In this document: positions 341 through 30,844 of the stretch, piece after piece
How the letters are laid out: every line of letters starts with the position of its first letter
Numbering within the stretch: position 1 is the first letter of the stretch
Assembly (NCBI GenBank): GCA_964654145.1
Contig: CAZZHI010000001.1
Location: 9,956 to 73,955 of the forward strand
Length of the DNA stretch: 64,000 bases
DNA from: an uncultured Candidatus Saccharibacteria bacterium
GTDB taxonomy: Bacteria; Patescibacteriota; Andersenbacteria; UBA10190
Direction of reading: 5' to 3'
The notes under the pieces: model-generated
The model's input: the letters and a program-made list of their open reading frames with translations, nothing else
The model's database searches: none
What the model was told of the DNA's origin: nothing
Made by a program: the position numbers and the translations under genes

Positions 341-2443
341 ATGCATGGATCCCTAGCTGGCCTCAACGAGCAACAACAACAGGTCGTATTGGCCACGAAA
401 GGGCCCATATTAGTGCTTGCGGGGGCTGGATCGGGCAAAACGAGGGCATTAACGCATAGAATCGCATATCTTATAGAACAACGTATTGCAGCCCCTGAAG
501 AGATTCTCGCAGTTACCTTTACAAACAAGGCAGCTGCCGAAATGAAGCATAGAATCCGAGAATTGCTAGGCTCTTCCTTTACGGCCCCCCAGGCAGTAAG
601 CACCTTCCATAGCATGGGAGTAAAGCTTCTTCGAGAACAATCCCACTTCCACACACGGTCTCGAGGGTTCTCTATTTTGGATTCCAAAGACTCTGAAAAA
701 TTGGTCCGAAAGGCCCTCAAGGACGCAAATTACCCATTAAAAGAATGGAGCCCCACAACAATACGAGGAATGATTTCTCGCCTCAAACATGAATACGTTG
801 AAAACCCAGAGAGCCTAGGGGCGGAAAGCCCTGCGGAAGAGGTGCTGGCAGCTATTTTCCCCGTATACGAAAAAATGCTCGCAGAACACGACGCGTATGA
901 TTTTGACGACCTCTTACGCATTCCACTCCGCATTCTACGCTCTCATTCCAGCGTACGAGCGCTCTATCAGTCTCGATGGAGATTCATTTCGGTTGATGAA
1001 TACCAGGACACAAACCCAATCCAGGACGAAATTATTTCTCATCTCTTGGGGGCCGAAAAGAATATTTGCGTTGTGGGGGACGATTACCAATCCATTTATT
1101 CATGGCGAGGAGCAAGCGTAGACCACATCCTTCAATTCGAAAAACGCCACCCAGGATGCAAAACCATTCTTTTAACGCAGAACTATAGATCTACACCCAA
1201 CATCCTTGAAGCAGCAAATAGCGTTATTGCACATAATGTGGGGCAAAAACACAAAACCCTTTGGACGACCCGAAAAACAGGAAATGAAGTTTCCCTGTCA
1301 CTTCTACCCTCAGATAGAGGAGAAGCGGAATGGGTATGCAAGCAAATTCGAGACCATGTAAGGGATGGGGGATCCTTGAGCGATTGTGCCGTCCTCTATA
1401 GAACAAACGCGCAATCTCGCCTTATGGAAGAACAATTTTTAACACATAGAATGCCCTACACTATAGTAGGAGGTTTTCGGTTCTACGACAGAAAAGAAGT
1501 TAAAGATGCCCTCGCCATACTTTCTTTTTACCTATCCCCATCTTCCAGAATTCATTTCGAACGAATTGCGGATGCCCTCTTAAGCCGAGTTGGTCCAAAA
1601 ACAATAGATAGATGGGATAACGAAGCAAAGTCTGCCGGAGTGTCTATAGGGGAATATCTTGCGTACACAAACGATCGCGCAGACTTGCGAAAAATATTTG
1701 CTGCGTACCGCGAGGCAAAAGATTCTCAATATGAGCGAGTATCGGATTTGCTTCGATTCCTTATTACCAATACGGGCTACTTAGCTTCTTTAGAACATCT
1801 ACCTGACGAAAAAGATCGAACAGAAAATATAAACGAACTTTTAAACGTAGCTGCCGCATACACCACTACAGAGGCATTTTTGGAAGACACTGCACTTCTT
1901 TCCGATATAGACACGCTCAATGCAACGGATAGTAAAGTTACCTGTATGACACTCCATGCTTCAAAGGGGCTCGAATTTCCAAATGTGTTTATTATTGGGT
2001 GCGAAGAGGGCCTTTTACCGCACCAAAATAGCGTTTCTTCATCTGCGGACCTCGAGGAAGAACGACGACTTTTTTATGTCGGAATGACTCGTGCGCGAGA
2101 ACAATTAACCTTAAGCCATAGCTCATATCGCTTCCGAGGGGGAGAGATGACACCTCAAGCACCTTCTCGTTTTCTCGAGAATCTTCCACCAACCATATCT
2201 TCGTTTAAAGAGAACACTTTTAGTGCACATACACCTTTTAACAGCTTTTCTCCCACTAATGACATCGCGGACTTTCTTCACGAAGAACCAACGATGGTCC
2301 AACCAACTTCCGGATCATACGTCACTCATCCCAAATTCGGACGCGGCGTTATTATTGGAATTATGGGCGAAACCATTACCTGTGTTTTTGAAGGTCACGG
2401 AGTTAAAAATGTTCCCGCCAACTCCTGCTCAACTCAAACCTAG
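341..2443 (+). CDS. uvrD: UvrD/PcrA-family ATP-dependent DNA helicase
   Basis: The protein is 700 aa. It has a Walker A motif (AGAGSGKTRAL), a TFTNKAAAEM motif, a DEYQDTN Walker B / motif II, and the C-terminal GCEEGLLPH...RRLFYVGMTRAREQL helicase motifs. Confidence 0.9.
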   Translation: MHGSLAGLNEQQQQVVLATKGPILVLAGAGSGKTRALTHRIAYLIEQRIAAPEEILAVTFTNKAAAEMKHRIRELLGSSFTAPQAVSTFHSMGVKLLREQSHFHTRSRGFSILDSKDSEKLVRKALKDANYPLKEWSPTTIRGMISRLKHEYVENPESLGAESPAEEVLAAIFPVYEKMLAEHDAYDFDDLLRIPLRILRSHSSVRALYQSRWRFISVDEYQDTNPIQDEIISHLLGAEKNICVVGDDYQSIYSWRGASVDHILQFEKRHPGCKTILLTQNYRSTPNILEAANSVIAHNVGQKHKTLWTTRKTGNEVSLSLLPSDRGEAEWVCKQIRDHVRDGGSLSDCAVLYRTNAQSRLMEEQFLTHRMPYTIVGGFRFYDRKEVKDALAILSFYLSPSSRIHFERIADALLSRVGPKTIDRWDNEAKSAGVSIGEYLAYTNDRADLRKIFAAYREAKDSQYERVSDLLRFLITNTGYLASLEHLPDEKDRTENINELLNVAAAYTTTEAFLEDTALLSDIDTLNATDSKVTCMTLHASKGLEFPNVFIIGCEEGLLPHQNSVSSSADLEEERRLFYVGMTRAREQLTLSHSSYRFRGGEMTPQAPSRFLENLPPTISSFKENTFSAHTPFNSFSPTNDIADFLHEEPTMVQPTSGSYVTHPKFGRGVIIGIMGETITCVFEGHGVKNVPANSCSTQT

Positions 2444-2520
2444 TCACACATAAAAAGCGTTCAAGATTTTTTTAAAATACTTCCCATGACACGCTTCATG
2501 AAAATAGGTACAGTTGCTGT

Positions 2521-3345
2521 ATGGTAGGGCCCTTAGTTAATCCGGAAAACTTGCAGCATTTTTTATCGTCACATAACCTTCGTGCTGCTAAGTCTCTTGG
2601 GCAAAATTTTCTTGTATGCGAAGAGGTTATTGATTCTATACTAATTGGGTTAGAAGGAGGGCCAAAAAAATTAACAGAACTTGGGCCAGGGCTTGGCACT
2701 TTGACTCAAGGTCTTATAGCTTCCGGATATACGGTACGGGGAATAGAAAAGGATGATGATTTTGTAAAAGTTTTACCAAGTGTCCTGCCTCCAAAATTAC
2801 GAGATAACCTCACGATTATTCATGGCGACTTACAGGAAACTTCTTGGGAGTGGGGCACTCCTTGGCAGCTCGTGGGCAATATACCTTACAATATTTCCGG
2901 CATGATAATTCGCCTCTTAACAAAGCTACGAGAAGTCCCGCACTCTGCTATATTTCTTATGCAAAAAGAGGTGGCACACAGGATCGCACATGATGAAAAT
3001 TCCATGAGCCTTCTTGGGCTTGCAGTTGATCTTTGGGGAAGTGCGACCATACTTCTCAACGTACCCCCTTCTTGCTTTATGCCTGCGCCCGCCGTTCACT
3101 CTGCACTCGTACAAATACGCCCTCACCAAACCATGCTTTCAACGGAAAAACGTGAGGCAATTATTGCGTGCGCAAAACCATTCTTTCAAGCAAAAAGAAA
3201 ACAAATTGGGCACACCCTAAAAACAGCCTACAAGAAAGACTCTCAAGAGATCGAGCAAATCATGAACACCCTTAAACTATCTGCATCCCTACGCCCAGAA
3301 AATCTTTCCGCACACGACTACGAGCGCCTGTGTGATATACTGTAG
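2521..3345 (+). CDS. rsmA: 16S rRNA (adenine1518/1519-N6)-dimethyltransferase RsmA/KsgA
   Basis: It carries the SLGQNFLV motif, a SAM-binding ELGPGLGTLT motif and a GNIPYNIS motif, with a size of about 270 aa. This is inferred from established KsgA motifs. Confidence 0.85.
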   Translation: MVGPLVNPENLQHFLSSHNLRAAKSLGQNFLVCEEVIDSILIGLEGGPKKLTELGPGLGTLTQGLIASGYTVRGIEKDDDFVKVLPSVLPPKLRDNLTIIHGDLQETSWEWGTPWQLVGNIPYNISGMIIRLLTKLREVPHSAIFLMQKEVAHRIAHDENSMSLLGLAVDLWGSATILLNVPPSCFMPAPAVHSALVQIRPHQTMLSTEKREAIIACAKPFFQAKRKQIGHTLKTAYKKDSQEIEQIMNTLKLSASLRPENLSAHDYERLCDIL

Positions 3346-3348
3346 TAC

Positions 3349-4302
3349 ATGTCTCGCCGCGTCGTTATCGGCATCCTTATTCTTCTTATCCTAGGCGTCC
3401 TCGGGGGCGCTGTTGCTCTTATTATTTCACGGTCCAGACAGCAAACCACACCTACCCCAACCCTTACACCAAGCTCCTTCCCGCAAGCATCTTCAACCCC
3501 TCAAGTAGTGCAAGACCCGACAGGGGACCCTGATGCAGACGGACTCTCAAACGCAGATGAAGCACTTTGGGGAACAAACCCATCTAACGCAGACACAGAC
3601 TCTGATGGCTACAAAGATGGAGAAGAAATTGCCGCTTCCCATAACCCAACAATTCCAAGCCCGAACGACAAGCTTCCCGAAGGGTTCCAGCCAGGCCAAA
3701 ACGTAACTCCACTTACAAGTTCAGCGCCCGCAGCTCAAGGATTTGAATCGCTATTCTCAGATTCTGTTGACGTAACAGGCGGAAATAAAAACCTTAGCCA
3801 AGAGTATGCACGATCCGTGCCAGATAATAACAAAACGCCTGTAACCCTCAATCAATTCATTGAAGCTCAAACAATTACAACAGTTCTTCCAAAAGTAAAC
3901 GACTCCGCAATTATCCCAGACCAAGCGACCCCATTAGCTTTAAATTATTATATGGCCGTAGCGGGGAACCTTGATGCAATATCTGATGAAACCCTATTAT
4001 CCCTAGCTTTAACTAATTTCCTAGATAATCAAAACGCATCTGGATTTGAAACAATTGCTATAGGAGTTAAATCTTTCCAAACGAGACTACAAGCATTGCG
4101 AGTCCCGCCACAAGCAACCCAATACCATAAGCTCTTACTTGGATATTGTGAGTTACTTGCTGGCACCCTAAATCAAATAGGAGGATATCCGAACGATCAA
4201 GTTAAAGCCCTTGTAGCATTTAGACAGTTAGACGCAATAGATAGGCAATATTATCCACTAGTAATTCAGGAACGGGCACGACTTCTTGAATTAGCACAAT
4301 AA
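3349..4302 (+). CDS. Membrane-anchored hypothetical protein with a Pro/Thr-rich linker and a paired DxDxDG calcium-binding (EF-hand/dockerin-like) module
   Basis: It has an N-terminal TM helix (IGILILLILGVLGGAVALII), a TPTPTLTP linker, and DPDADGLSNADEALWG followed by NADTDSDGYKDGEEI. It is the first gene of a long co-directional operon. Confidence 0.6.
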   Translation: MSRRVVIGILILLILGVLGGAVALIISRSRQQTTPTPTLTPSSFPQASSTPQVVQDPTGDPDADGLSNADEALWGTNPSNADTDSDGYKDGEEIAASHNPTIPSPNDKLPEGFQPGQNVTPLTSSAPAAQGFESLFSDSVDVTGGNKNLSQEYARSVPDNNKTPVTLNQFIEAQTITTVLPKVNDSAIIPDQATPLALNYYMAVAGNLDAISDETLLSLALTNFLDNQNASGFETIAIGVKSFQTRLQALRVPPQATQYHKLLLGYCELLAGTLNQIGGYPNDQVKALVAFRQLDAIDRQYYPLVIQERARLLELAQ

Positions 4303-4309
4303 CAATTAT

Positions 4310-5080
4310 ATGAATCCTACAAATAAAATTGGAATACGAATTATAGGGATAACACTTATATGCTCCATTCTTCTTATCGGAATATGGAAAGCCGTTGAGT
4401 TTGGAATTTCTGCTTACAAAGCCCCGCAAGCGACTACAACGCCTACCCCTGTTGCATTGCTCCCAGAACCAACCCAAGACCCTACTATCCAACAAGAATT
4501 ATCAACTTTTGTAGATACGGCACAAGAATCACTTACGGGGTACACAAAAAAATATGTCGACTCATTGCCAGCAGATAGCACAAAAGAACAAGTGCTGGAT
4601 CAAAAAGCATTAGAAGCTTTCGTAGATGCAAACCGTGGCCCGCTGTTACCAGAACTTCCAGCTGGCACAATCCAAACTACAAGTGCGTCAGGGAAGAAAG
4701 CAATTCAAACATACCTCGACTCCATATCTCCGGTTCAAAATAAAGAAATTGCAACCGTAACAGGAGACATGATTACCGAGGCTTTAGCAAAACAACAAAG
4801 CAACGAGGAGCTCCAAGCAATTGTTCCTATTCGTGCCTCTATTGAGAAAAATTTAGAAATATTTAAAAGCGTAAAAACACCTAAAGAATCACTCGAACTT
4901 CACACAAAACTTATTCAAGCAACCCAGTCATTACTGAGCAGCATTCAACTACTCCAAGAAATGCGAAATGATCTTGTAGGGGGTCTTATTGGGCAAAAAA
5001 ATCTTGCAGACCTAAACGGAATATTCACAGAAGTATCGAACAATATTCTTGCCCTCGAAAGTAAATACGACATCAAGTAA
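4310..5080 (+). CDS. Membrane-anchored hypothetical protein
   Basis: It has an N-terminal TM helix (IGIRIIGITLICSILLIGIW) and a Thr/Pro linker. It lies 8 bp after the previous gene, and I recognise no family. Confidence 0.55.
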   Translation: MNPTNKIGIRIIGITLICSILLIGIWKAVEFGISAYKAPQATTTPTPVALLPEPTQDPTIQQELSTFVDTAQESLTGYTKKYVDSLPADSTKEQVLDQKALEAFVDANRGPLLPELPAGTIQTTSASGKKAIQTYLDSISPVQNKEIATVTGDMITEALAKQQSNEELQAIVPIRASIEKNLEIFKSVKTPKESLELHTKLIQATQSLLSSIQLLQEMRNDLVGGLIGQKNLADLNGIFTEVSNNILALESKYDIK

Positions 5081-5113
5081 AACGTGGTATAATCCTGTCA
5101 TACTTTAGGTCGT

Positions 5114-6664
5114 ATGCCTGTAACTATCTTTTATTTTTTTCGCCATACTTTTAGAGCAGTAGTTATCGCTCTTATTTTTTTCGGCATCACAGTATTTTCG
5201 CCATCTGCATACGCAGATCCGCATGCAGTATTTTATACTGACCGGGCCCAAGAACAGCTTTTTTACAACACCCTCGCTGCGCTTAATCAGGCAGATTTCG
5301 TAGAGCCAGTCTCAAATAATCAATACAGCCGTGCCGTCCTCCTTGCAAGAAGGTCCTCTACTGTAGCAAGAACAAGTCCGCAACCAGGAGATAGAACTTT
5401 TGTAGCGGAGCAAAATCCGGTTATTAATTCCACGAGAACAGATTTACCCGCAATCTTGAGCAGAGGTATAACCCTCGAAGGAAACGACCTCTGGACTGCA
5501 TACCTTATTAATCAATTCGCCCTTGAAACTACAACAAGACGATCAGAAGATGAACTTGCTCGTACACTCTGCGAACGAGGTTTGGGAAGAGTTCAGTGTA
5601 ATAGAAGACTAGGCCGCAGTCAGCAGCAGAATAAAGCATTTATAACACAACCAGCAACAGAGTCTGGAAAGCTCGATGTCGCCGTAAATTCTGCTCTTTC
5701 ATCTGGACTTGCTAGTGAAACAGCCTTGCGCCAAAAAATTGCGGATCCAAACAACACAACAAGCGACCCTGTATACCGAATACCTCGACCGAATTCTCCG
5801 GCCTTAGCCGGCCTCAATAAAAATATTCAAGGCAACCCCGACGCATTGAATTTTATGAGTATAGTAACGGGCAACGCATTAAACGATATAGAGATAGACC
5901 CTGATACCCTCGAAGAATTAACATTCGATAAAAATGGAATACCTAGCGTTCCGGAAAACACGTCTGCAAGCGAATATGTTCGCAAACTTAATCAAATATC
6001 AAGTTTGCCCTCAAAACTATATTCCGTTGGGCAAAAGGCATATCAACAAGCTGTTGCGTTTCAGCATTACACTCAAAACCCAACAGCAGTTGCAGACTAC
6101 AAGCTGGTTGCCGAATCTCCTAATGGAGATGGAGGGTTAATTGCAAACATCACAACTCCAGTAAGCGCAAAACTTGATACAATTAGCTCTCTTGCAGCCC
6201 TCCAAACAGCGGCAGCAACGAGCCAAAAAAGCGCAAACCCAGCCGCTATCGGAGACCCCGGAGATACGCGAATTATTGAGACTGACAAGGTCGCAATTCC
6301 GCCATCACCCGCACCAACCCCACCGCTCATATTTGTAACAAACCCATCATCAGGAACCCCGCAAGTTGCTGGTATTTCAACAGAGCTCTATAACTTATAT
6401 CGCGATTATTACGACAACCCTCCAGATACTGCCCTTTCGCCCAATGCAAACTTAATTAACCCCAATAGGGAAAGGGGTCTTCATGATGGATTATTAGCCC
6501 TAACGGATAATACATATCGAAAAGGAAATCTAGCAGACTCCTCCGAAATGTCATGTGCATTTTGTATTCAACTTGATCAAGTCTTAGAACGCTTCACAAT
6601 CTCGAACGTACTTTGCTCATTATTCCCTACGCTAAATGTTTGCGTAAATAATAAAACAATATGA
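5114..6664 (+). CDS. Secreted hypothetical protein with a Cys-containing C-terminus
   Basis: The signal-peptide-like N-terminus ends in SAYA|DP. The protein is 516 aa and hydrophilic, and its stop overlaps the next start (ATGA). Confidence 0.55.
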   Translation: MPVTIFYFFRHTFRAVVIALIFFGITVFSPSAYADPHAVFYTDRAQEQLFYNTLAALNQADFVEPVSNNQYSRAVLLARRSSTVARTSPQPGDRTFVAEQNPVINSTRTDLPAILSRGITLEGNDLWTAYLINQFALETTTRRSEDELARTLCERGLGRVQCNRRLGRSQQQNKAFITQPATESGKLDVAVNSALSSGLASETALRQKIADPNNTTSDPVYRIPRPNSPALAGLNKNIQGNPDALNFMSIVTGNALNDIEIDPDTLEELTFDKNGIPSVPENTSASEYVRKLNQISSLPSKLYSVGQKAYQQAVAFQHYTQNPTAVADYKLVAESPNGDGGLIANITTPVSAKLDTISSLAALQTAAATSQKSANPAAIGDPGDTRIIETDKVAIPPSPAPTPPLIFVTNPSSGTPQVAGISTELYNLYRDYYDNPPDTALSPNANLINPNRERGLHDGLLALTDNTYRKGNLADSSEMSCAFCIQLDQVLERFTISNVLCSLFPTLNVCVNNKTI

Positions 6665-8589
6665 AAATCACGCTCCGACATATTTCTGTATTAGGATTAT
6701 TCCTCTTACTATTTGCTGCAAATTCTGCTCATGCTGCGCCAATAACAATGTCTGGCTCCAAGGGACCCAATATTCAAATCACATCTTTTTCTAGTGCGGA
6801 ACTAACTCAAAAAGGATGTCTCCTCGTGACCGCCCAAGTAGGTGATTACAACACGTTAACATGGACATACGAAAGTACTCATGCGGGGCTTACATTTTTC
6901 ATCCCAAAAGACAACCTAGAGAAAGAGGAAATGAAATATACCGATGACGACGGCTTTGAAACGTTCCGAGATTGGTATACAAATACGTTTTCTTGCCCAC
7001 CCGACATATCGAGCAATATCATTGCAGCCGATACCGCGGCAAACAGTTCAAGCTGGTGGAACGACCCATTCGCCGCTGTTATTAATAATCTTTTTGACTT
7101 TGTTGATGCAACAATAAGCTGGCTCATGGAAGGGCTAACAAGCAAGCTATTTTTAACAATTCTTCAGCATGGCGTTTTTATTCAGAGCGATATCGTAAAA
7201 GCTGGCTGGCCTTTTATTCAGGGAATCACCAACCTTGGTTTTATTTTTGTGCTTCTCTATATAGCGCTTGCAACAACACTTCGCTTAGAGTCGGTTTCTA
7301 CTTCTGTCCAACGCTTATTACCCAAGCTTCTCATGGGAGCGCTTCTGGTAAATTTCAGCCTCGTTATTGGAGGACTCATAATCGATGCATCTCGCCTGGT
7401 TATGGCAATAGAGCTACGTTTTGTAGGAGGGGGGGAAGTTAGCGATGGCAAACTCATAAGCGAAATACTAGAACACTCGAAAACGATAGAAACCTCTAGC
7501 GCCACAATCCTAGGACAAACAAGTGAGGCAAAGGGATATGCGGGGATCGTACTTACAAGACTACAGAGCACCATCGTACGCCTTGCCCTTACATTAGGGT
7601 TATTAATTATTGCACTCAATCTCTTTGTCCGATACGTTGCACTCCTTATATTACTTATATTCTCACCCATAGCGTATCTCGCCATGGTCCTCCCGCAAAC
7701 AAAGGATTTTTCCATTAAATGGTGGAGCTATTTCATTAAATGGGTGCTCTATGGTCCGATCGTTTTATTTTTTATGATTATTATCACAAAAATAAGCACC
7801 GTTAACATTCCCGATGATGCCGGGATACTGCCACAAGTTGCTCAATTTTGCGTTGCTATAGCCTTGCTTTATGGGGGACATATCGCTGGCAAAAATGCGG
7901 CAGGGGCGGGCTCTAGTGCCGTAATGGGCTTTGCTGCAAAACATCCTCGCGCCGCCCTTGCTGTGGGAGGAGTACTTACAGGAGGGGTACTACCCGCACT
8001 TGGATTATTGGCGGCCGAGCGAGGGGCTCGTATGGCGGGAACAGGGGTTAAAAATGCTGGACGCGACATCTACAATGCAGCGGGGGCAAACCTGAAAAAT
8101 GCTCCCGTAATTAAACCTATTAGGGACTTCATGGGATATGGCCTACGAGACGACAAAGGTAACATAAAAACAGGCAAGTCTTCATGGGCTTCAGCAGGGG
8201 CAAACGCGCTTACGGAGAAATTTAATAGCTCTTTACAAAAAGATGTTACTAATATTAGAGAGCTAATGGACAATGAAACCGGACAACTTATGACTGCCCC
8301 ATCAGAAGAATTAGCACTTATGCCCTCACAGCTTAAAAAGGGTCATGTTGTAGGGGCCTTAGGTAATAATGAAAAGGAGCGGAATGCGAATATTGAAATT
8401 ATCATGAAAAGTGGATCGCAAGCACAAAGGATGGCGTTAGCACAGAACAAAGACCATATTGCTTCGCTTAGCTCAACGCAAATGGCACAACTACAGCAAA
8501 TTGTTCAAAAATCTGTGCCTGACGGAAAAGACAAGACAGCGGTTCTTGAAAGAATGATTAAAACAGTAGACGAATTAGATAAAAAATAA
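6661..8589 (+). CDS. Polytopic membrane protein, VirB6/TrbL-like candidate of the T4SS-like operon
   Basis: It has a signal peptide (MKITLRHISVLGLFLLLFAANSAHA), a periplasmic domain of about 170 aa, a block of at least 5 predicted TM helices (residues about 180-430), and a hydrophilic tail. This architecture and its position upstream of VirB3/VirB4-like genes resemble VirB6. The assignment is inferred from architecture, not from a motif. Confidence 0.4.
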   Translation: MKITLRHISVLGLFLLLFAANSAHAAPITMSGSKGPNIQITSFSSAELTQKGCLLVTAQVGDYNTLTWTYESTHAGLTFFIPKDNLEKEEMKYTDDDGFETFRDWYTNTFSCPPDISSNIIAADTAANSSSWWNDPFAAVINNLFDFVDATISWLMEGLTSKLFLTILQHGVFIQSDIVKAGWPFIQGITNLGFIFVLLYIALATTLRLESVSTSVQRLLPKLLMGALLVNFSLVIGGLIIDASRLVMAIELRFVGGGEVSDGKLISEILEHSKTIETSSATILGQTSEAKGYAGIVLTRLQSTIVRLALTLGLLIIALNLFVRYVALLILLIFSPIAYLAMVLPQTKDFSIKWWSYFIKWVLYGPIVLFFMIIITKISTVNIPDDAGILPQVAQFCVAIALLYGGHIAGKNAAGAGSSAVMGFAAKHPRAALAVGGVLTGGVLPALGLLAAERGARMAGTGVKNAGRDIYNAAGANLKNAPVIKPIRDFMGYGLRDDKGNIKTGKSSWASAGANALTEKFNSSLQKDVTNIRELMDNETGQLMTAPSEELALMPSQLKKGHVVGALGNNEKERNANIEIIMKSGSQAQRMALAQNKDHIASLSSTQMAQLQQIVQKSVPDGKDKTAVLERMIKTVDELDKK

Positions 8590-8592
8590 ACC

Positions 8593-9165
8593 ATGGATAC
8601 TATCGCACTTAAGACAATCCCTATTAATTCTCTCGTTCTTATCCCAGAACAAGAACGAGGTAGTTACATTCAGAAAATATTTACTCTTCACCAAAAGATG
8701 CAACTTATGTTGTTCTCCGACGACACAGGAGCGTTTATACGGGGAATAGCAAAAACGTACAACGTAAGCCCAGAGACAGCCCCTCATATTGCGTTTGCCA
8801 TCCTGGAAATCGCAATTGGCAAAAAGACCATAGCTCAACTTCCGTCTATTCTGTCTACAGAACTCCAATTACCGATCGATACTGCGCAAAAGATGGCAAC
8901 GGAAATAGAGCATGATGTACTAGCGCCAATTAAAGCAGAGCTCAACGATCAATCCAGTCAGCAAAAGGGGAGTAGCGTGCCATCGCGTACAACTGCACAG
9001 GCAGCATCTTCTGGTATGAAAAATGTTCTTAACCTCAAAGAAATAGCCGCAAAGCCGCCCCAAACACAATTACCCCCGAAGCCCATACAGCCGTCCCTAC
9101 CCCCACGGCGCCCAGTACCTCCCAAAATGCCACCATCCCCGATAGAGCCTATTCGTTTTACATAA
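8593..9165 (+). CDS. Hypothetical protein with a proline-rich C-terminus
   Basis: The ORF has a codon-like composition and a C-terminal PPKPIQPSLPPRRPVPPKMPPSP tract. It lies 4 bp after the upstream gene. Confidence 0.45.
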   Translation: MDTIALKTIPINSLVLIPEQERGSYIQKIFTLHQKMQLMLFSDDTGAFIRGIAKTYNVSPETAPHIAFAILEIAIGKKTIAQLPSILSTELQLPIDTAQKMATEIEHDVLAPIKAELNDQSSQQKGSSVPSRTTAQAASSGMKNVLNLKEIAAKPPQTQLPPKPIQPSLPPRRPVPPKMPPSPIEPIRFT

Positions 9166-9174
9166 TTAGTACCC

Positions 9175-9621
9175 ATGCGCTTTCAAGTACCACAATTTAC
9201 CGACATTGAAGATAAAATAGTTGGTCCATTTACACTAAGACAGTTCTTAACGTACGTAGTAGCAGTTATGCTCTTGGTTCCTGTATATATTTATTCCGAC
9301 TTATCACTCTTTATTACTATCGCAATCCCAGTTCTTGGTGTTGCGGCAGTGTTTGCGCACTTAAAAATATATGGAAAAACATTCACCCAAGTGCTCTTTG
9401 CATCCATCGCATACGCTTCAAAGGGGCAATTGTATATTTGGAGGAGGCAGAAAAACCAGCCCTTTAAAATTGTTGATCCAGAATGGGATATTGCAGCAGG
9501 CAATCGCACAAATTCTGCGCTCACGCGCCCCGCATCTTCTCTTGATGCTATTGCGCAGTCACTGGAAACAACAGGAAATATAAGCAAAGAGGATATTCCA
9601 GACCCTCTCATGGTACAATAG
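9175..9621 (+). CDS. Small 2-TM membrane protein, VirB3/PrgI-like
   Basis: An N-terminal FTDIEDKIVGPFTLRQFL segment is followed by two TM helices. It sits immediately upstream of the VirB4-like ATPase, as virB3/prgI genes do in Gram-positive-type conjugation systems. Confidence 0.5.
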   Translation: MRFQVPQFTDIEDKIVGPFTLRQFLTYVVAVMLLVPVYIYSDLSLFITIAIPVLGVAAVFAHLKIYGKTFTQVLFASIAYASKGQLYIWRRQKNQPFKIVDPEWDIAAGNRTNSALTRPASSLDAIAQSLETTGNISKEDIPDPLMVQ

Positions 9622-9627
9622 CAAGAT

Positions 9628-10329
9628 ATGGCGATGTTCGACATGATGGCACCTCGTTCAAAGGGGAAAGCGAGCCAAACTCTCATCAATATCTCTGAGT
9701 TACGAGATGGGATTGTTATATTAAAAGATAACACCATGCGCGCAGTGCTCATGATTTCTTCTGTAAACTTCGCACTGAAGTCTGAAGATGAGCAAAATGC
9801 TATCGTATATGCATATCAAGACTTTATTAACTCGTTAGATTTTCCAATTCAACTTACAATATCTTCCCGAAAGATGGACATCACGCCCTACCTGGAGGAG
9901 GTTAAGCACCTGCGCGACCTGCAAAAAAATGAGCTCCTTCATCTCCAGATGACGGAATATATTAACTTCGTCTCGGAACTCGTAAAAGGAAGTAATATTA
10001 TGACAAAAACATTTTTTGTAACTATTCCCTTCGCAGTAACACAAGATAAAAAAGAAGGATTCTTCTCCAGAATGACAAAAGGGGCAAAAGGAGCTGCCGG
10101 AAAGGGGAAAATGAACGATATTGAATTTGAACATAACAAAACTCAGCTTATGCATAGGGTAGAGCAGGTTGCAATTGGACTGCGAGGCATCGGGCTGCGA
10201 GTAGTGCCGCTAAAAACCCAGGAATTAATCGAGTTATTCTACAACTACTTCAACCCCTCCACCTCCCGAAACCAAAGATTGCGAAACGTAGACAAGCTCA
10301 CAGTTCAGGAAACAGATACACCCCTATGA
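9628..10329 (+). CDS. VirB4/CagE/TrbE-like N-terminal domain protein (first of two coupled ORFs)
   Basis: The ISELRDGIVILKDNTMRAVLMISSVNFALKSEDEQNAIVYAYQDFINSLDFPIQLTISSRK segment matches the VirB4 N-terminal-domain pattern. Its stop overlaps the next ATG (ATGA at 10326-10329). Confidence 0.55.
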   Translation: MAMFDMMAPRSKGKASQTLINISELRDGIVILKDNTMRAVLMISSVNFALKSEDEQNAIVYAYQDFINSLDFPIQLTISSRKMDITPYLEEVKHLRDLQKNELLHLQMTEYINFVSELVKGSNIMTKTFFVTIPFAVTQDKKEGFFSRMTKGAKGAAGKGKMNDIEFEHNKTQLMHRVEQVAIGLRGIGLRVVPLKTQELIELFYNYFNPSTSRNQRLRNVDKLTVQETDTPL

Positions 10330-12134
10330 AACTGCCATCTTTTTTTCAAAAAACTCCAGCTAAAAAAGAAACAAAAGATCCTGTTATTGAACAGTTCGAT
10401 AAAGGCGTTTCTTCGCTACGAGATATTATTGCCCCTTCTGCATTTAAGGTAAAAACAAAATCACTAGAAATCGATGGGAAATTTGCAACGACTGTTTTTG
10501 TTACCACATACCCTCGATACCTCGACACGAATTGGTTTGCATCGATCGTAAACTTTGACGTGGAGTTTGATGTTGCAATGTTTATTTACCCGCAAGACTC
10601 TGCAACAATTTTGAAAGAATTACGAAAAAGAATAACCCAGGTTTCTACCTCTATTTCTATGCAAGCTGAACAAGGAAAAGTTCGTGACCCTCAACTAGAG
10701 ACTGCATACCAGGATATTGAAGAGCTTCGTGATCGCCTCGTGCAGGGAACTGAACGCTTCTACCAATACGGGCTATACATAACCATGTATGCGAATAACG
10801 AAGAAGAGCTTGATGAAATATTGTCTCAAGTAGAGGTTTTACTAGAAGGAAGGCTCATTTACGCAAAACCAGCCCTATTCCAAATGGAACAAGGATTCAC
10901 CTCTACGCTACCGCTAGGGCACGATGGCCTTGTAGTAAACGTAAACATGAACACCTCGCCGCTTTCAACAAGCTTTCCGTTTGTAAGTTCCGATCTTACG
11001 AGCAACTCTGGTGTTCTATACGGAATCAACCTCCATAACAGCAGCTTGGTTCTATTCGACCGCTTCAGCCTAGAAAATGCCAACATGGTTATCTTTGCAA
11101 AATCCGGTGCCGGAAAAAGTTATACTGTAAAATTAGAAATTCTCAGAAGCCTCATGTTCGGTACAGAAATTATTGTCATCGACCCAGAACAAGAATACCG
11201 ATACTTGGCGGAAGCAGTCGGTGGAGCGTACCTCCAAATCGCCATCTCTTCTGACCATCGTATCAATCCATTCGACTTACCAGAACTAGGGGAGGATGAA
11301 AATCCCGAAGCCGTACTCCGAGAAAATATCACGAGGCTTATTGGGCTTATATCACTGATGGTTGAGGGGCTTTCCGCAGAAGAGCAATCAATCGTAGACG
11401 GAGCGCTTTGGGAAACCTACGCATTAAAAGATATTACGCGCGGTGCAAGGTGGACAAAACCAGAAGTTCCAACGCTTCAAGATTTCTACAACATTACAAA
11501 AGACATGGAAGGTGGGAAGAATGTAGCAACAAGATTGCAGCGATTCGTAGAGGGTACCTTTGCCGGAGTATTTAATAGGGCTACAAACATCGACCTCGAT
11601 CAACAGCTCATTGTATTTAATATTCGAGACATGGAAGAAGAGCTTCGCCCAATTGCCATGTACGTAGTTCTTGGCTTTATATGGAACAGAATTAGAAGCC
11701 AGCTCAAGCGAAGAATTCTCGTGGTAGACGAAGCCTGGATCATGATGCGAAACGAAGAGTCTGCGAAATTCTTGTTCTCCATGGCAAAACGAGCTCGAAA
11801 ATACTACCTGGGCGTAACTACGATCACACAAGATATTTCCGACTTTTTGGGCTCAAAATATGGCAAACCAATTGTTACAAACTCCTCAATCCAACTTCTC
11901 CTGCGCCAGTCTCCTGCGGCAATCGATGCTCTATCTGAATTGTTTTATCTCACAGACCACGAAAAGTTTCGCTTACTTGAGAGCGATGTGGGCGAGGGAA
12001 TATTTTTCGCAGGCCTTAAGCATGTTGCCATTAAGGTTGTCGCCAGCTATGCGGAAGACCAGGTAATTACATCCGACCCTCAGCAAATCCTTGCAATCGA
12101 AGCGGCCAAGAAAGAGCTTGGCGGCCAAGCGTAA
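10326..12134 (+). CDS. VirB4-family type IV secretion/conjugation ATPase (ATPase part)
   Basis: It has a Walker A (FAKSGAGKSYTV), a Walker B (RRILVVDEAWIMM) and TcpF/PrgJ-like N-terminal segments (IIAPSAFKV...TTYPRYLDTNWFASIV). Walker A lies at residue 257, which is too N-terminal for a complete VirB4 unless ORF 9628-10329 is part of the same protein. Confidence 0.75.
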   Translation: MKLPSFFQKTPAKKETKDPVIEQFDKGVSSLRDIIAPSAFKVKTKSLEIDGKFATTVFVTTYPRYLDTNWFASIVNFDVEFDVAMFIYPQDSATILKELRKRITQVSTSISMQAEQGKVRDPQLETAYQDIEELRDRLVQGTERFYQYGLYITMYANNEEELDEILSQVEVLLEGRLIYAKPALFQMEQGFTSTLPLGHDGLVVNVNMNTSPLSTSFPFVSSDLTSNSGVLYGINLHNSSLVLFDRFSLENANMVIFAKSGAGKSYTVKLEILRSLMFGTEIIVIDPEQEYRYLAEAVGGAYLQIAISSDHRINPFDLPELGEDENPEAVLRENITRLIGLISLMVEGLSAEEQSIVDGALWETYALKDITRGARWTKPEVPTLQDFYNITKDMEGGKNVATRLQRFVEGTFAGVFNRATNIDLDQQLIVFNIRDMEEELRPIAMYVVLGFIWNRIRSQLKRRILVVDEAWIMMRNEESAKFLFSMAKRARKYYLGVTTITQDISDFLGSKYGKPIVTNSSIQLLLRQSPAAIDALSELFYLTDHEKFRLLESDVGEGIFFAGLKHVAIKVVASYAEDQVITSDPQQILAIEAAKKELGGQA

Positions 12135-12143
12135 CCAATCTAT

Positions 12144-12623
12144 ATGGCAGCTTCTATTTCACAAACCGAGCAAATGCGATCAACCGCACTAAATACAGCA
12201 CGATATAGAAAACAGAATATTCAACAAGAAGTTCGAAAAGGCTTATTTCAATCAACCGCACCACAAGAAGAGCCCGAGACTGTCCCGGAACAATCTCAAT
12301 ATAAACAACGACTTGCGATGCTAAAAGCCGGATCAATAAAGCGCGCAAATACTGAGCTTGGAAGTAAGGCTGGAGCAACTGCTGGGAGCGCTATTGGATC
12401 AATCATACCCGTATTAGGTACAGGTATTGGATTTTTTCTAGGCCGATTTATAGGAAGAAAATTAGGAATCACTGGAATCATAATTATTTCTCTCATACTA
12501 TTAGCATTCTGTATGACGATATTTTTTATAATTTTCATAGGAGCACTTAAGGGGTATTGCGATACGTATGTCGGTACTGCTGTAGACTATATAACAATGC
12601 AAATATGTCCAAGCTTTCAATAA
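12144..12623 (+). CDS. Small membrane protein (hypothetical)
   Basis: It has a hydrophilic N-terminal half and a Gly-rich double TM segment (AGATAGSAIGSIIPVLGTGIGFFLG...ITGIIIISLILLAFCMTIFFIIFIG). Confidence 0.4.
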   Translation: MAASISQTEQMRSTALNTARYRKQNIQQEVRKGLFQSTAPQEEPETVPEQSQYKQRLAMLKAGSIKRANTELGSKAGATAGSAIGSIIPVLGTGIGFFLGRFIGRKLGITGIIIISLILLAFCMTIFFIIFIGALKGYCDTYVGTAVDYITMQICPSFQ

Positions 12624-13207
12624 TTTTTACATTTATACTTCTAATATTTTTCTGCGCTACCAGCCCCCTTGCTTTAAGGGCCCAAGAATCTGGCAGCACA
12701 GCCCAAACGAGCGGGTTTGGAAAATTTGAAGTAGGCCTGCCAGGGATTCCCAGCGACACAACAATCGATAGCTTTGCCAGCGATCCTGAACCCATCCTTA
12801 AATTTATTAACCTAGCCACAAATGCCGTAATTGCAATTTTAGTTATTATTGGCCTTATTAGTATCACTGTTGGCGGATACTTATATATGACAGCAGCTGG
12901 AAATGGGAAGCAAATTGAAACCGCAAAAGAAATAATAATTGCAGCATTGGCTGGAATATTTCTAGCCCTTATATCAGTTGTCATACTTAATACAATCAAC
13001 AACTACTTAGGGAAAGACGCGAAAGAACCTACGCTCGGGCCTGTGGAGGGCTCAGCGCTTGATAGCCCTTCGGGAGCAATGCAGAATTTTAATAGTGACG
13101 GTAATTCCTTCGAAAACTTTGAAGACTTCGATAGTTCTGGTGGATCTTTTGAAGACCTAGATAATCCCGACTCATTCGGAAGCCCAGATAACCTTCCTAC
13201 GCTCTAG
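12605..13207 (+). CDS. Secreted 2-TM hairpin protein with an acidic tail, VirB2/TrbC-like pilin candidate
   Basis: The track ORF starts at 12557, but the internal Met at 12605 gives a typical signal peptide (MSKLSIIFTFILLIFFCATSPLALRA|QE). This is followed by two hydrophobic helices separated by AAGNGKQIETAKE and a D/E/F-rich tail. Confidence 0.4.
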   Translation: MSKLSIIFTFILLIFFCATSPLALRAQESGSTAQTSGFGKFEVGLPGIPSDTTIDSFASDPEPILKFINLATNAVIAILVIIGLISITVGGYLYMTAAGNGKQIETAKEIIIAALAGIFLALISVVILNTINNYLGKDAKEPTLGPVEGSALDSPSGAMQNFNSDGNSFENFEDFDSSGGSFEDLDNPDSFGSPDNLPTL

Positions 13208-14420
13208 GAATACGATGAAGGGTGGGAAGTAAGCTGAGTGTAAAGAATGCCCACCATAGGGCAGAGAGATCATTTTTCCAGTAGATTGTATCAACAAGTC
13301 CAAATAACAGCATACACACCACGGCTAGAATGCTTGCTTGCTGATATATGTCTGCGTGTTTTATTGCCTGGCTCCACGCCCCTATAACAAAAGAATTTAA
13401 TGCAACAAAACTTACAAGCCCCAAAAGCCCCATATTAAGGTAAAAGGAAAGTATCCAGTTGTGCGGATCTCGAAATACGAATTCGTGTTGCAATACATAT
13501 AATCCGTTCCATAGACCAGCCCGCTGCTTACTAAAAAGCCCATGAAGCTCTGCTTGATACGCCTGTTCAAATTGCCCCAAGCCAACCCCTAGAAGAGGGT
13601 TTTTTTGGATAAGCCGTATTCCAATGTCCCATAACTGCAATCGAACCGTTACAGAATTTCCAAAAGATCTATCCGATAAAGGAAGAAGAATATAGTGCAA
13701 ACGCCCTGAAGCAAAAAACACTGCGCCTGCACACAAAACCGTAAGAAGTAGCCCCAATATCAATTTTTTTGCACTCACGGAGGGTACTGTGCGCCAAGAA
13801 AAGATGAGGCCACCTATAAGGCATCCAATTATTGCGGCCATAGCACCGAAAGACTGGGTTGCAATAATAGCAGTTAAAAGAAAAATTGCGCCTATTCCAT
13901 AAAAACGATCCCGCCCGCGTATCCAAAGCCATATAGATAAAACCGCTATTGGAGCAAGAAACAGCGCAAGAGAATTCGGAACATCGTACAACGCGGCAAT
14001 GCGTTCAAAGTTACGGATCTGAGATAGTCCGATCAGTGCAACAACCAAACCAGAACATACAAAAGAATAGAGTATTTCTTTACGCCCACGTTTAATCCCC
14101 ACAAGATACAGTAAAAAACTAAACATAATAGGAGTCACAATCCAACTTTTCAAAATACCCAAACTAGAGCGTAAAACAGGAGAATAAAAAGTTGCCAAAA
14201 GCGCAGCGACAACAAATAAAATGACCCACACTCTATACACAAAGGAAATGCCAAGCATGGCGCCCAAGAGATATTTTCGAAACCTTGGATTGCTAAGAGC
14301 AATAAGCAGAACGCTCCAAACCATAACCTCAAAAAGATTTGTAGGAATTCCAGCGATTGAAAACCTTACGACGTATAAAGGAAGCAGCCCCGCCAGAATT
14401 GTAATAAGCGTATATATCAT
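13197..14420 (-). CDS. Polytopic membrane protein, O-antigen ligase/polymerase (Wzy/WaaL-like) family candidate
   Basis: The protein is 407 aa with at least 10 TM helices and a large loop. It is the first minus-strand gene of a glycosyltransferase/flippase cluster. Confidence 0.4.
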   Translation of the reverse strand: MIYTLITILAGLLPLYVVRFSIAGIPTNLFEVMVWSVLLIALSNPRFRKYLLGAMLGISFVYRVWVILFVVAALLATFYSPVLRSSLGILKSWIVTPIMFSFLLYLVGIKRGRKEILYSFVCSGLVVALIGLSQIRNFERIAALYDVPNSLALFLAPIAVLSIWLWIRGRDRFYGIGAIFLLTAIIATQSFGAMAAIIGCLIGGLIFSWRTVPSVSAKKLILGLLLTVLCAGAVFFASGRLHYILLPLSDRSFGNSVTVRLQLWDIGIRLIQKNPLLGVGLGQFEQAYQAELHGLFSKQRAGLWNGLYVLQHEFVFRDPHNWILSFYLNMGLLGLVSFVALNSFVIGAWSQAIKHADIYQQASILAVVCMLLFGLVDTIYWKNDLSALWWAFFTLSLLPTLHRIPRA

Positions 14421-15724
14421 AGAGTAAGCGCTGCGAAGATAATGTACGGAATAAGGACGTGAGGATATAAGATGCTATTTACGAATTGAGCATGCACAAG
14501 CAGGGCAATAGTTGCCCAAACAAAGAAGAGAGAGTTGTAACTCCGCATAAAAAGCCAGCGCCGTATATGGAATACCACCCCCAAGAGCATGGGGGTAAAA
14601 AATAGAAGAGCTCCAACCATCCCGGTAGTCACCAGAATAGTAAAAATACTGTTGTCAGACCCTGCGCGCGAGTGTACAGAGAAACTAGATACGAGATTTT
14701 CATTTGCTGCAGCAAATTGATACGCATTATACCCGACACCGAACAACATATTTGGACTAACCAAAAATCTCCAGACAGATCGGTAAGACTCCGCCCTGAG
14801 TGCTATTGTTGGGTCATGAAAAAAAACTTGATATGCCCGTTCTCGAAGGAGGGTAATACTTCCGGAAAAAATAATAACTAACAACACACCTCCGGGCACA
14901 ATTGCTTTCTTCCAGTTTCCAGAAATCTTAGATGAAAATACCCAAATAATTCCGCAACATAAACCCGCAACCAAAAGAGCAAGATAAGAACTTCTAGACT
15001 CCGTTAAACCGATGGCTACAACCGCAAAAAACAACCAAAAAATTCGAGTGATTGCAGAAACTTTATGCGGCATCCAATACAAAAATATAGGGAGAAATAC
15101 TACAAAGAATATCCCCAAAAAATTAGGGTCGAGCCACGTTGAAACCATCCTATCAATATGCGGATCCCAACCGTTGTCCACAAATCCAGCAAGGCTGGGG
15201 AGAAAGAATAGCTGCACAAATCCAGCAACGAGCAATGCTCCATAGAGATACACGAACCCCTTTTTCATGCTAGAAAAAATACTGGGCAGAGAGGTTGCAA
15301 TAAGGGCTGCCGGGAGCAATGAAAGCACCACGGCAAGCCTGATCCAATACAGAAAAGAAATACGAATATCTACCATCTGGTATACCCCCACGTGAGCCAC
15401 AAGTACTGCTAACCCCCAAAGCAAAAACGGAGAGATAGCAATAGACGCTAAAAAAATCTTCTTAGTATAGAAAGGCAATTCTCCCCTTAATAGAGATACG
15501 AATAAGGATAATAAAAAGACAAGAACCGCAATATCACTCACCAAAAGACCACCCCCTTGCCCCTGCAGCGGGATGCGGATAAGTTGTCCTAAAAATAACG
15601 ATAGATAAACTCCGGTGATCGAAGCTTTCAGGGAAAATATCATCCCAAAGACACATGCCGCAACTAAGAGACCCGTGGTCGTAGCAATCGGTAAATACTC
15701 CGCAAGAATCTCTGAAGCTTCCAT
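14417..15724 (-). CDS. Polytopic membrane protein, O-antigen ligase/polymerase-like (paralog of the previous gene)
   Basis: The protein is 435 aa with multiple TM helices. The track start at 15724 overlaps the upstream GT2 gene by 61 nt. An internal Met (MIFSLKAS, about 15643) is an alternative start. Confidence 0.4.
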   Translation of the reverse strand: MEASEILAEYLPIATTTGLLVAACVFGMIFSLKASITGVYLSLFLGQLIRIPLQGQGGGLLVSDIAVLVFLLSLFVSLLRGELPFYTKKIFLASIAISPFLLWGLAVLVAHVGVYQMVDIRISFLYWIRLAVVLSLLPAALIATSLPSIFSSMKKGFVYLYGALLVAGFVQLFFLPSLAGFVDNGWDPHIDRMVSTWLDPNFLGIFFVVFLPIFLYWMPHKVSAITRIFWLFFAVVAIGLTESRSSYLALLVAGLCCGIIWVFSSKISGNWKKAIVPGGVLLVIIFSGSITLLRERAYQVFFHDPTIALRAESYRSVWRFLVSPNMLFGVGYNAYQFAAANENLVSSFSVHSRAGSDNSIFTILVTTGMVGALLFFTPMLLGVVFHIRRWLFMRSYNSLFFVWATIALLVHAQFVNSILYPHVLIPYIIFAALTL

Positions 15725-16434
15725 ATATAAATAGGGTAGTGCTTTTTATAGTACCTGTCAGCCGAGTCGTCGTATATCAGAGTCTTTTTCTTTTTATTTA
15801 ATTTACTACCCCCTCGCCGGTGGACTACTAATGCCCGAGGATCAAGCATAACAACACGTCCTTCTGCGCGAGCCCGATGACACAAATCGATGTCCTCCCA
15901 ATACAAGAAAAAGCCTTCATCAAACCCTCCCAATTTTTCAAAAAATTCCCTTGATATAAGAAGTGCTCCGCCAGAGACCCAACCAACAGAGACGGGCATA
16001 CGTGGCATTACGTTTCGATATGCATGCCTTGTTAGTAGATTGAATATTCCAGGCTCTTCGCCATAGGAATTTTTTTCAGGAACCATATAAGAATCGGAGA
16101 GCAACATTCCCACAATACCAACACGGGGAATAGCTTGCATCGTATGTGCAGCATACTCTATTGCACCACCAATAAGCTTTGCGTCTGGGTTCAAGAAAAG
16201 AACATATTCCGTGTTCAATAATCGCGCTGCCTTATTTGCAGCGTATCCGAACCCCAGATTCTCCCGCAGATCTTCGCAGGCACGCCCCAAGCGAGTAATC
16301 TCCGCAACCGTTCCGTCATTAGATGCACTATCCACAATCGCGATATCGGAAATACCCGCAGATAGAACACTCTCAATACAGGCGGCTATATCTTGCTCGT
16401 TATTATGCGTAACAATAGCAACTCCTATATTCAT
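15664..16434 (-). CDS. Family 2 glycosyltransferase (GT-A fold)
   Basis: It has VAIVTHNNEQDIAACIESV, DSASNDGT and DAK (DxD-like) motifs. The track ORF extends to 16563, but Met MNIGVAIV at 16434 avoids a 133-nt overlap with the upstream gene. Confidence 0.7.
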   Translation of the reverse strand: MNIGVAIVTHNNEQDIAACIESVLSAGISDIAIVDSASNDGTVAEITRLGRACEDLRENLGFGYAANKAARLLNTEYVLFLNPDAKLIGGAIEYAAHTMQAIPRVGIVGMLLSDSYMVPEKNSYGEEPGIFNLLTRHAYRNVMPRMPVSVGWVSGGALLISREFFEKLGGFDEGFFLYWEDIDLCHRARAEGRVVMLDPRALVVHRRGGSKLNKKKKTLIYDDSADRYYKKHYPIYIWKLQRFLRSIYRLLRPRVS

Positions 16435-17294: not shown

Positions 17295-17333
17295 GATGCG
17301 TATTCTGTACTATTATAGCTTAATAGAGCATTT

Positions 17334-21673: not shown

Positions 21674-21786
21674 GTGATGATGATGACGTATTCATTAAAA
21701 CAAGTCAAGACCGGGGCTGTATTACAAACTTTCCACAAATTATCAACACCTTTTCCACACTTTGAGGCTTAAGCCCCTTTCTTAAC

Positions 21787-21795: not shown

Positions 21796-21797
21796 CC

Positions 21798-30826: not shown

Positions 30827-30844
30827 AATGTATGGAGTATGAAA

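Follow-up and report, generated by a model that had tools for sequence, protein, structure and literature searches.

A probable non-conjugative type IV secretion system near the replication origin of Candidatus Andersenbacteria, with a constrained motor and exposed parts that differ between close strains

A type IV secretion system (T4SS) of Patescibacteria has been described by Quinonero-Coronel et al. 2025 (PMC12102498), who placed its VirB4 clade within MPF-FATA. The prototype is the gene set SEML1_0006-0019 of Ca. Southlakia epibionticum ML1 (Wang et al. 2023, PMC10633639). In the systems of this clade TrsD is the commonest companion of VirB4, PrgI/VirB3, VirB6 and VirB2-like pilins are found near virB4, relaxases are almost absent, and the genes often lie near dnaA, dnaN, KsgA (that is, RsmA), RnpA and RpmH (PMC12102498). 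Andersenbacteria assemblies with VirB4 were included in that dataset. Here we analysed 64 kb of DNA (the window) from Candidatus Andersenbacteria, which contains at 3349-13207 an operon of ten genes, p1 to p10. We are highly confident that this operon is a Patescibacteria T4SS, and we consider it likely, on the whole, that it is a chromosomal, non-conjugative machine descended from monoderm (MPF-FATA) conjugation machinery. The system has already been published and therefore its kind is not new; the less expected part is the swap of divergent alleles.

The initial annotation interpreted the operon as a T4SS-like apparatus, and this is supported but known, because the locus matches the published Patescibacteria-clade T4SS point for point. 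VirB4, a TrsD-like protein, PrgI/VirB3, VirB6 and a VirB2-like pilin are common to both, as are the lack of a relaxase and of a nearby coupling protein, the chromosomal location and the proximity to dnaA, dnaN, ksgA and rnpA. Nevertheless, there are differences. The operon has a single pilin gene instead of an array of 2-11, and no peptidase/lysozyme (VirB1-like) gene follows virB4. Furthermore, five genes that are restricted to Andersenbacteria (p1, p2, p3, p5 and p9) are not described in PMC12102498, and the exchange of p3, VirB6 and pilin alleles between strains, which our comparison indicates, also sets the operon apart from that account.

The ten open reading frames (ORFs) are co-directional, each of them intact, and they are given below with the class of protein to which each was assigned (TM, transmembrane; TSP3, thrombospondin type 3).

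3349..4302, + strand: p1, TSP3-repeat anchored protein
4310..5080, + strand: p2, paralogue of p1
5114..6664, + strand: p3, exported or anchored protein of 516 aa
6661..8589, + strand: p4, extended VirB6/TrbL-like membrane protein
8593..9165, + strand: p5, soluble protein of 190 aa
9175..9621, + strand: p6, PrgI/VirB3-like protein with 2 TM helices
9628..10329, + strand: p7, TrsD-like protein, detached VirB4 N-terminal domain
10326..12134, + strand: p8, VirB4-family ATPase of 602 aa
12144..12623, + strand: p9, small membrane protein
12605..13207, + strand: p10, VirB2/TrbC-type pilin-like protein (the ORF listing extends its start to a TTG at 12557)

The operon follows uvrD (341-2443) and rsmA (2521-3345), and p1 starts 3 nt past the rsmA stop codon. 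Including this junction, the spacing along the operon is 3, 7, 33, 3, 9, 6 and 9 nt. The p3/p4 and p7/p8 pairs are joined by 4-nt ATGA stop/start overlaps (at 6661 and 10326 respectively), and p9 and p10 overlap by 19 nt. The ten genes are intact and translationally coupled. The ORF listing confirmed the operon of ten ORFs on one strand after uvrD-rsmA that had been announced initially, ATGA overlaps included; the count was right, but only nine were described, the TrsD-like p7 being the one left out.

Regarding the cytoplasmic motor, p8 scored 381.5 bits against the NCBIfam model conju_CD1110 (cut-off 325) over model positions 179-733 of 752, matched PF19044, PF12846 and PF03135 in Pfam, and has the Walker A motif FAKSGAGKSYTV (KSGAGKS) and the Walker B motif LVVDEAWIMM. 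Its closest solved relative is the C-terminal domain of Thermoanaerobacter VirB4 (4ag5, E 5.6e-45), and it also matches VirB4_plasma (E 1e-84) and the structure of TrwK from R388 (E 8e-10). Judged by these matches, p8 is a VirB4 of the CD1110 family with MPF-FATA affinity, consisting of the middle and C-terminal ATPase domains. The start of the same model was found in p7, which covers positions 3-137 (E 2.5e-8), and because of this complementary coverage we regard VirB4 as split in two. Other matches of p7 were VirB4_plasma (E 2.8e-8), the TrsD/TraD family (E 3.8e-5) and positions 16-183 of TraC_F_IV in Pfam; the database record of a protein identical to p7 is annotated with PF26593 (TraC-like), and the PDB gave no match. 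In the synteny table of 80 related loci p7 precedes VirB4 in every locus that extends that far, and the TrsD/VirB4 split also occurs in pGO1-type systems (PMC12102498). The third member, p6, scored 37.0 bits against PF12666 PrgI (cut-off 27) and has TM helices at 19-37 and 43-61; it is the PrgI/VirB3-like membrane anchor of VirB4.

The membrane platform p4 starts with a signal peptide and has a beta-rich ectodomain at the N-terminal end (~28-111), a TM core made of helices (~175-450) and, at the C-terminal end, a further helical domain (~480-641). TrbL (PF04610) was matched by 8 of its 46 syntenic orthologues (best E 6.8e-10), the CD3337/EF1877 mobilome membrane family by 9/46 and Mbov_0396 by 2/46. 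A sequence-profile link to the solved VirB6 structures was tried and rejected: with the profile of the orthologues TrwI came up at no better than E 5.8, and for this reason a comparison of folds was needed. The AlphaFold2 model, built with 64 homologues (pLDDT 82.6), has the VirB6 fold and a polytopic topology, with the N-terminus outside and at least five TM helices. We are therefore confident in assigning p4, through its predicted fold, as a VirB6 that is elongated at both ends. Among 5.8 billion clusters the exact protein was found just once more, and after that the closest relative shares 49% identity.

The pilin-like p10 has three hydrophobic segments, the signal peptide at 6-24 and a hairpin at 75-93 and 110-128. 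It has a short variable N-terminus, a TM hairpin with a conserved GGYxYMTAGG loop and a variable acidic tail. Its orthologues match PF18895 T4SS_pilin in 17/24 cases (best E 1.1e-17) and the Mbov_0395 pilin-like family in 16/24; p10 itself matches the latter at E 1e-5. These matches assign p10 to the T4SS_pilin family, of VirB2/TrbC type. Taken together, the VirB4 ATPase in the 602-aa protein, the PrgI/VirB3-like protein, the VirB6/TrbL-like protein of 642 aa and the VirB2/TrbC pilin architecture, all proposed in the initial annotation, stand after the profile, fold and topology comparisons. The profile matches to T4SS components extend beyond the ATPase, with PrgI above the Pfam cut-off. The operon encodes, in short, an inner-membrane and pilus-assembly core made of a split VirB4, VirB3/PrgI, VirB6 and a VirB2-type pilin.

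The window was compared with a close strain (locus L003, a contig of ENA ERZ964738) by blastn, by a profile of identity per 40 aa and at fourfold-degenerate sites. The flanks are 97-98.6% identical at the nucleotide level, and the genes behave as follows.

p6, p7, p8: 100% amino-acid identity, fourfold-site differences 3-6%
rsmA: 98% amino-acid identity, fourfold-site differences 5%
p3: 53% amino-acid identity, fourfold-site differences 55%
p4: 38% amino-acid identity, fourfold-site differences 67%
p9: 74% amino-acid identity, fourfold-site differences 35%
p10: 73% amino-acid identity, fourfold-site differences 47%
5535..8786: hypervariable segment 1, C-terminal three quarters of p3, whole of p4 and start of p5 (blastn)
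12484..13160: hypervariable segment 2, end of p9 and the pilin p10

Segment 1 could not be aligned with L003 at the DNA level, whereas the two sequences are 92.5-98.6% identical elsewhere. Synonymous divergence is at or close to saturation in p3 and p4 and much increased in p9 and p10, and therefore these segments reflect replacement by divergent alleles and not positive selection alone. This indicates that p3, p4 and p10, together with the end of p9, have probably been swapped for anciently diverged alleles between close strains. All eight contigs with an identical VirB4 (8/8) carry the other allele set, and 6/8 end in or beside p3/p4 (L087-L089, L091-L093), which suggests that the assemblies broke there because the strains differ. 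Further pairs whose VirB4 is 95-99% identical proved to come from distant genomes, in which the compared genes differ at 23-81% of fourfold sites; p4 is fast-evolving and VirB4 strongly constrained in them, and they are no independent test of replacement.

The motor shows the opposite behaviour. The window VirB4 has no amino-acid change against L003 at 5.8% fourfold-site divergence, and the VirB4 proteins of two other loci, L008 and L010, are 99.3% identical although 36% of their fourfold-degenerate sites differ. The cytoplasmic motor is, by these counts, under extreme purifying selection, while the exposed p3, p4 and pilin termini appear to evolve fast, which fits contact with a variable partner such as a host surface. 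A precedent has been reported in oral TM7, where VirB4 is conserved and VirB6 is clade-specific (PMC7739484). It is a tentative idea, and we lean against it, that the exposed half of this frozen and near-essential machine (p3, VirB6 and the pilin) is an exchangeable host-specificity cassette. If it were, the T4SS stalk or pilus would be a host-recognising structure, the p3/VirB6/pilin alleles would set the host range at strain level, and recombination would shuffle them like phage receptor-binding proteins or O-antigen loci.

Regarding conservation, we compared 80 related loci from species-representative genomes. The order uvrD-rsmA-...-VirB6-PrgI-TrsD-VirB4, with p5, where present, between the VirB6-like gene and PrgI, is kept over Andersenbacteria and Moranbacteria/Paceibacteria, and because it is conserved in 80 related loci this arrangement is not due to chance. 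VirB4 is 75-99% identical to that of the window in the Andersenbacteria loci and 56-64% in Moranbacteria/Paceibacteria; among the best database matches of p8 the Andersenbacteria proteins are 78-99% identical. The 120 best matches of p8 all belong to Patescibacteria (Andersenbacteria, Moranbacteria, Paceibacteria), as do all those of the 80 loci that have an informative title. In Andersenbacteria the operon has uvrD-rsmA upstream and a surface-polysaccharide (Wzy) cluster, yidC, rnpA and dnaA downstream, and the uvrD-rsmA linkage is retained in many Moranbacteria/Paceibacteria loci. Since the gene order and the housekeeping flanks are conserved across two classes, the operon is a vertically inherited chromosomal operon and not an island.

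Many metagenome-assembled genome records that carry this operon bear the title "uncultured Candidatus Saccharibacteria" or "uncultured Bdellovibrionales" (L006, L008, L009, L011; L047, L054, L062). The identity of their VirB4 is what one sees in Andersenbacteria or Moranbacteria, and the titles look like placeholders or errors.

Two other readings of the locus start from conjugation. One is that the operon is an integrated conjugative element (ICE) or its remnant, with a relaxase, a coupling protein and an integrase that are located beyond the window or have diverged too far to be recognised. The families nearest to VirB4, the TrsD-like protein, PrgI, the VirB6-like protein and the pilin-like protein are those of monoderm ICEs and plasmids (CD1110, CD3337/EF1877, Mbov_0395/0396/0397, TrsD), and most Patescibacteria genomes encode homologues of the type IV coupling protein (T4CP) elsewhere, at a long distance from virB4 (PMC12102498). 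The initial statement that the system has no coupling protein is correct for the 64 kb, although it can be claimed for the window only. When every ORF of at least 120 aa in the 64-kb window was scanned against Pfam, we found no relaxase, VirD4/TcpA coupling protein, VirB11, integrase or transposase, as had been reported. The sole ATPase of the T2SSE superfamily in the window (38022-39710, 562 aa) has an MshEN domain and is of PilB type. The base composition is uniform without a GC shift at the operon, the operon has no flanking or att-like repeats, and neither tRNA genes nor Rfam families were found in the 64 kb. Moreover, the same housekeeping neighbours are present in all Andersenbacteria loci, the linkage to uvrD-rsmA persists in many loci of the other lineages, and the reported VirB4 phylogeny follows the taxonomic classes, transfer being rare (PMC12102498). 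Neither repeats nor tRNA genes, nor a shift in composition or an integrase, turned up in the searches, and the ICE is largely refuted; we regard it as very improbable, and the chromosomal, non-mobile character proposed at first is supported, also by the synteny in related genomes. The other reading, that the operon is a decaying, non-functional relic of an ancient conjugation system, could draw on the canonical VirB1, VirB8, T4CP and relaxase that were not found and on a VirB4 in two pieces. However, the ten coupled ORFs are intact, VirB4, TrsD and PrgI have no amino-acid change at 3-6% synonymous divergence, VirB4 remains 99% identical at 36% fourfold-site divergence, the TrsD/VirB4 split is kept in all loci and known from pGO1-type systems, and S. 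epibionticum cannot do without the homologous genes. The selection data refute the relic, and we consider it next to impossible.

Concerning the mechanism of a non-conjugative T4SS of this kind, an analogy with the R388 structure is possible, since the components recognised here are precisely its inner-membrane and pilus-assembly module, in which VirB4 docks through VirB3 and is joined by a VirB6 platform and the VirB2 pilin. The p7/p8 ATPase, docked on p6, would pull the pilin p10 out of the membrane and hand it to the p4 platform, where it would be polymerised. The product may be a stalk or short pilus-like filament that spans the thin monoderm envelope, with p1, p2 and p3 outside the cell, decorating or supporting it. 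By extension from transposon sequencing in Ca. Southlakia epibionticum, the filament or channel would touch the host bacterium and move macromolecules between host and epibiont, and such contact and transport would make the T4SS near-essential for a host-dependent lifestyle. We would give this pilus or contact-conduit mechanism an even chance of being right. In the same species epibiotic growth depends on virB4, trsD, prgI, virB6 and the pilins (PMC10633639, PMC12857230), which are essential for it, and comEC and the t4cp homologue are not (PMC10633639).

As to what is transported, reviews have proposed both effector delivery and uptake of DNA or nutrients (PMC12857230, PMC11665869). One reading is an exporter of effectors or toxins, injecting factors that manipulate or permeabilise the host bacterium. 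Wang et al. 2023 suggested protein export or an alternative role, because they recognised no coupling protein or relaxase (PMC10633639). Effector systems without T4CP are known (Ptl and Brucella VirB, PMC12857230), and fast-evolving surface parts fit an organelle of host contact. Nevertheless, we recognised no effector or immunity gene in or beside the operon in Pfam and NCBIfam, a secretion signal or adaptor is not known, and the neighbours are housekeeping and surface-polysaccharide genes; we take protein export to be rather unlikely, though worth keeping in mind. A machine for DNA uptake, which would take in DNA of the host or the environment either to scavenge nucleotides or for transformation, has precedents in H. 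pylori ComB and archaeal Ced, which are T4SS-derived, non-conjugative and chromosomal like this operon and import DNA without a relaxase. H. pylori ComB also works without a T4CP, and it has a diderm core, unlike the operon. Patescibacteria are incapable of de novo nucleotide synthesis, and DNA uptake has been proposed for Saccharibacteria in reviews since comEC is dispensable there (PMC11665869). The weak match of p8 to CedB (E 1.4e-12) points in the same direction. However, this match reaches 47 bits against a cut-off of 700 and so reflects generic VirB4 similarity only; beyond it, the NCBIfam search for Ced/ComB-specific components gave CedD at E 4.4e-3 and nothing else. No DNA-binding, nuclease or ComEC-like partner was found in the operon (Pfam, NCBIfam), nothing here indicates DNA as the substrate, and hypervariable exposed parts would not be predicted by the import of free DNA. 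We therefore hold DNA uptake to be unlikely.

Several points weigh against our interpretation of the operon as a working T4SS with exchangeable exposed parts. The window p4 reached 11.6 bits against TrbL (gathering threshold 25.9, E 0.24) and p10 reached 20.0 bits against PF18895, below the gathering threshold of 26.6; the assignments of both lean on orthologues and fold. VirB8-, VirB1- and VirB5-like components were not found in the operon, and the model of p3, of low confidence (pLDDT 63), had no specific structural match. The pilus is a prediction and the function of the operon is wholly inferred, while the role of the T4SS in Saccharibacteria is called "completely unknown" in reviews (PMC11665869). 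Finally, the allelic replacement rests on one close-strain pair, the window and the L003-type population.

Among more distant systems, the Gram-positive conjugative T4SSs (TrsC-TrsD-TrsE of pGO1/pSK41, PrgH-PrgI-PrgJ of pCF10 and CD1110/CD3337 of the C. difficile CTn) share with the operon a CD1110-family VirB4, PrgI and a VirB6-like protein of the CD3337/EF1877 family, and the separate TrsD-like protein ahead of VirB4 is the pGO1 arrangement. Unlike them, the operon lacks a relaxase, a T4CP, a VirB1-like hydrolase, a VirB8-like protein and a PrgB-like surface adhesin, has a VirB2-like pilin and is not on a mobile element. The R388 Trw and Agrobacterium VirB systems (MPF-T; 7o3v, 7o41, 8rt9) share VirB4 homology and the VirB3 and VirB2 architectures, and the R388 structure serves as the model for pilus assembly by VirB4, VirB3, VirB6 and VirB2. 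In contrast, the operon has no outer-membrane core (VirB7/9/10), VirB5, VirB8, VirB11 or VirD4; its VirB6 is extended at both ends, its VirB4 is split and the envelope is monoderm. The ICE module of Mycoplasma, another wall-poor monoderm with a pilin-like 2-TM protein, consists of Mbov_0395 (pilin-like), Mbov_0396 (TM) and Mbov_0397 (VirB4), whose families match p10, the p4 orthologues and p8 respectively, although all the operon scores are under the curated cut-offs and the gene order is different. Unlike the operon, the Mycoplasma ICE is a mobile element that encodes both a coupling protein and a DDE transposase. Because these three families match operon proteins, the pilin-like 2-TM protein, and with it the "pilin" of the Patescibacteria systems, may be ancestral in monoderm T4SSs rather than borrowed from diderm systems. 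This choice between a monoderm-ancestral and a diderm-borrowed pilin was left open in PMC12102498.

The remaining five proteins, p1, p2, p3, p5 and p9, are lineage-specific envelope or accessory proteins. In p1 a TM helix at residues 5-23 is followed by a Thr/Pro linker, bacterial TSP3 (Ca-binding) repeats (29.5 bits against PF18884 TSP3_bac, cut-off 25) and a C-terminal helical domain, and orthologues are present in the Andersenbacteria loci. Its paralogue p2 (hhalign 99.6%, E 5e-24) likewise has an N-terminal TM anchor, a linker and the C-terminal helical domain, matches no Pfam or NCBIfam family above cut-off, and has lost the TSP3 repeats that many p2 orthologues retain. In p3 the N-terminal ~160 aa are conserved (ADPHAVFYT...TLEGNDLWTAY, with two invariant Cys) and the remainder is hypervariable; its profile found just 142 representatives out of 1.84 billion proteins. 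In the soluble p5, which has no TM segment, the N-terminal domain is conserved, the tail is rich in Pro and an NVLDLK motif is present; p5 gave no family match in Pfam/NCBIfam and nothing meaningful in the PDB. Lastly, p9 has a cytoplasmic N-terminal part of ~70 aa, a glycine-zipper segment, a TM helix and a variable C-terminal end, with hydrophobic segments at 81-99 and 112-130 and a match to Gly-zipper_Omp (E 1.3e-3) below the cut-off. The orthologues of p5 and p9 occur in Andersenbacteria only, and no relatives of p3, p5 or p9 were detectable beyond this lineage.

Several Moranbacteria loci also have TSP3-repeat proteins upstream of the VirB6-like gene. In a related Andersenbacteria genome (locus L001, contig CAZSUC010000001.1) an extra gene at 1557-3926, which encodes a protein of 789 aa with no Pfam match, lies between the p1 and p2 orthologues.

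Few machines are known on which the epibiotic life of this very large and mostly uncultured radiation depends, and the Patescibacteria T4SS is one of them. The window does not hold a new kind of system, but a fully resolved example from Andersenbacteria, a class little discussed in the literature. Its contribution is the five accessory genes specific to the lineage, a VirB6 that could be assigned with confidence from its predicted fold, and the contrast between motor and exposed parts; a constrained motor with apparently exchanged exposed parts is a testable pointer to the parts that may touch the host.

As for the surroundings, from the operon towards the origin there are two Wzy_C proteins, glycosyltransferases, a flippase, jag (KH/R3H), yidC, dnaA (21798-23222), dnaN and a RecF/SMC-type ATPase (PF02463). 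Further on the Pfam scan found PBP1, ruvC, ruvB, the PilB-type ATPase, polA and sugar-nucleotide genes, and the Pfam content of the window is ordinary chromosomal. The GC skew switches sign at ~23 kb, where its cumulative minimum lies, and DnaA boxes are clustered ahead of dnaA, at 21740-21795, and again in the interval from dnaA to dnaN, at 23234-23408. The chromosomal replication origin, oriC, is at 21700-23460 of the window. Since the skew and the DnaA boxes place it there, the operon ends ~8.5 kb from oriC. Lying left of the origin and on the + strand, uvrD, rsmA and the T4SS genes are transcribed head-on to replication. Promoter-like sites were not more frequent than in shuffled sequence, and 24 terminator-like sites were found where 14.8 +/- 3.9 were expected, none of them convincing inside the operon.

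Other loci of the window are also worth recording. The surface-polysaccharide cluster directly past the operon, on the - strand (13197-19675), encodes a tandem pair of Wzy_C/O-antigen-ligase-like proteins together with GT2 glycosyltransferases and a flippase; of the two Wzy genes the first is also variable, with 74% identity between close relatives whose VirB4 is 99% identical. An ATP-grasp (ATPgrasp_ST) protein with a Zn-protease domain lies beside a PKD protein with a 7TM_transglut domain at 29519-32398. At 35137-39710 a protein of 603 aa with three lamin-tail domains is followed by a CofD-like protein and by the lone PilB/GspE-type ATPase (MshEN) mentioned above, which is probably a component of type IV pilus machinery rather than a VirB11. 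Finally, a protein of 640 aa with no family match (49594-51516) lies beside a sugar-nucleotide/nonulosonic-acid set at 47505-59645, which includes GDP-mannose dehydratase-like enzymes, a NeuB fusion, a methyltransferase and a cytidylyltransferase.

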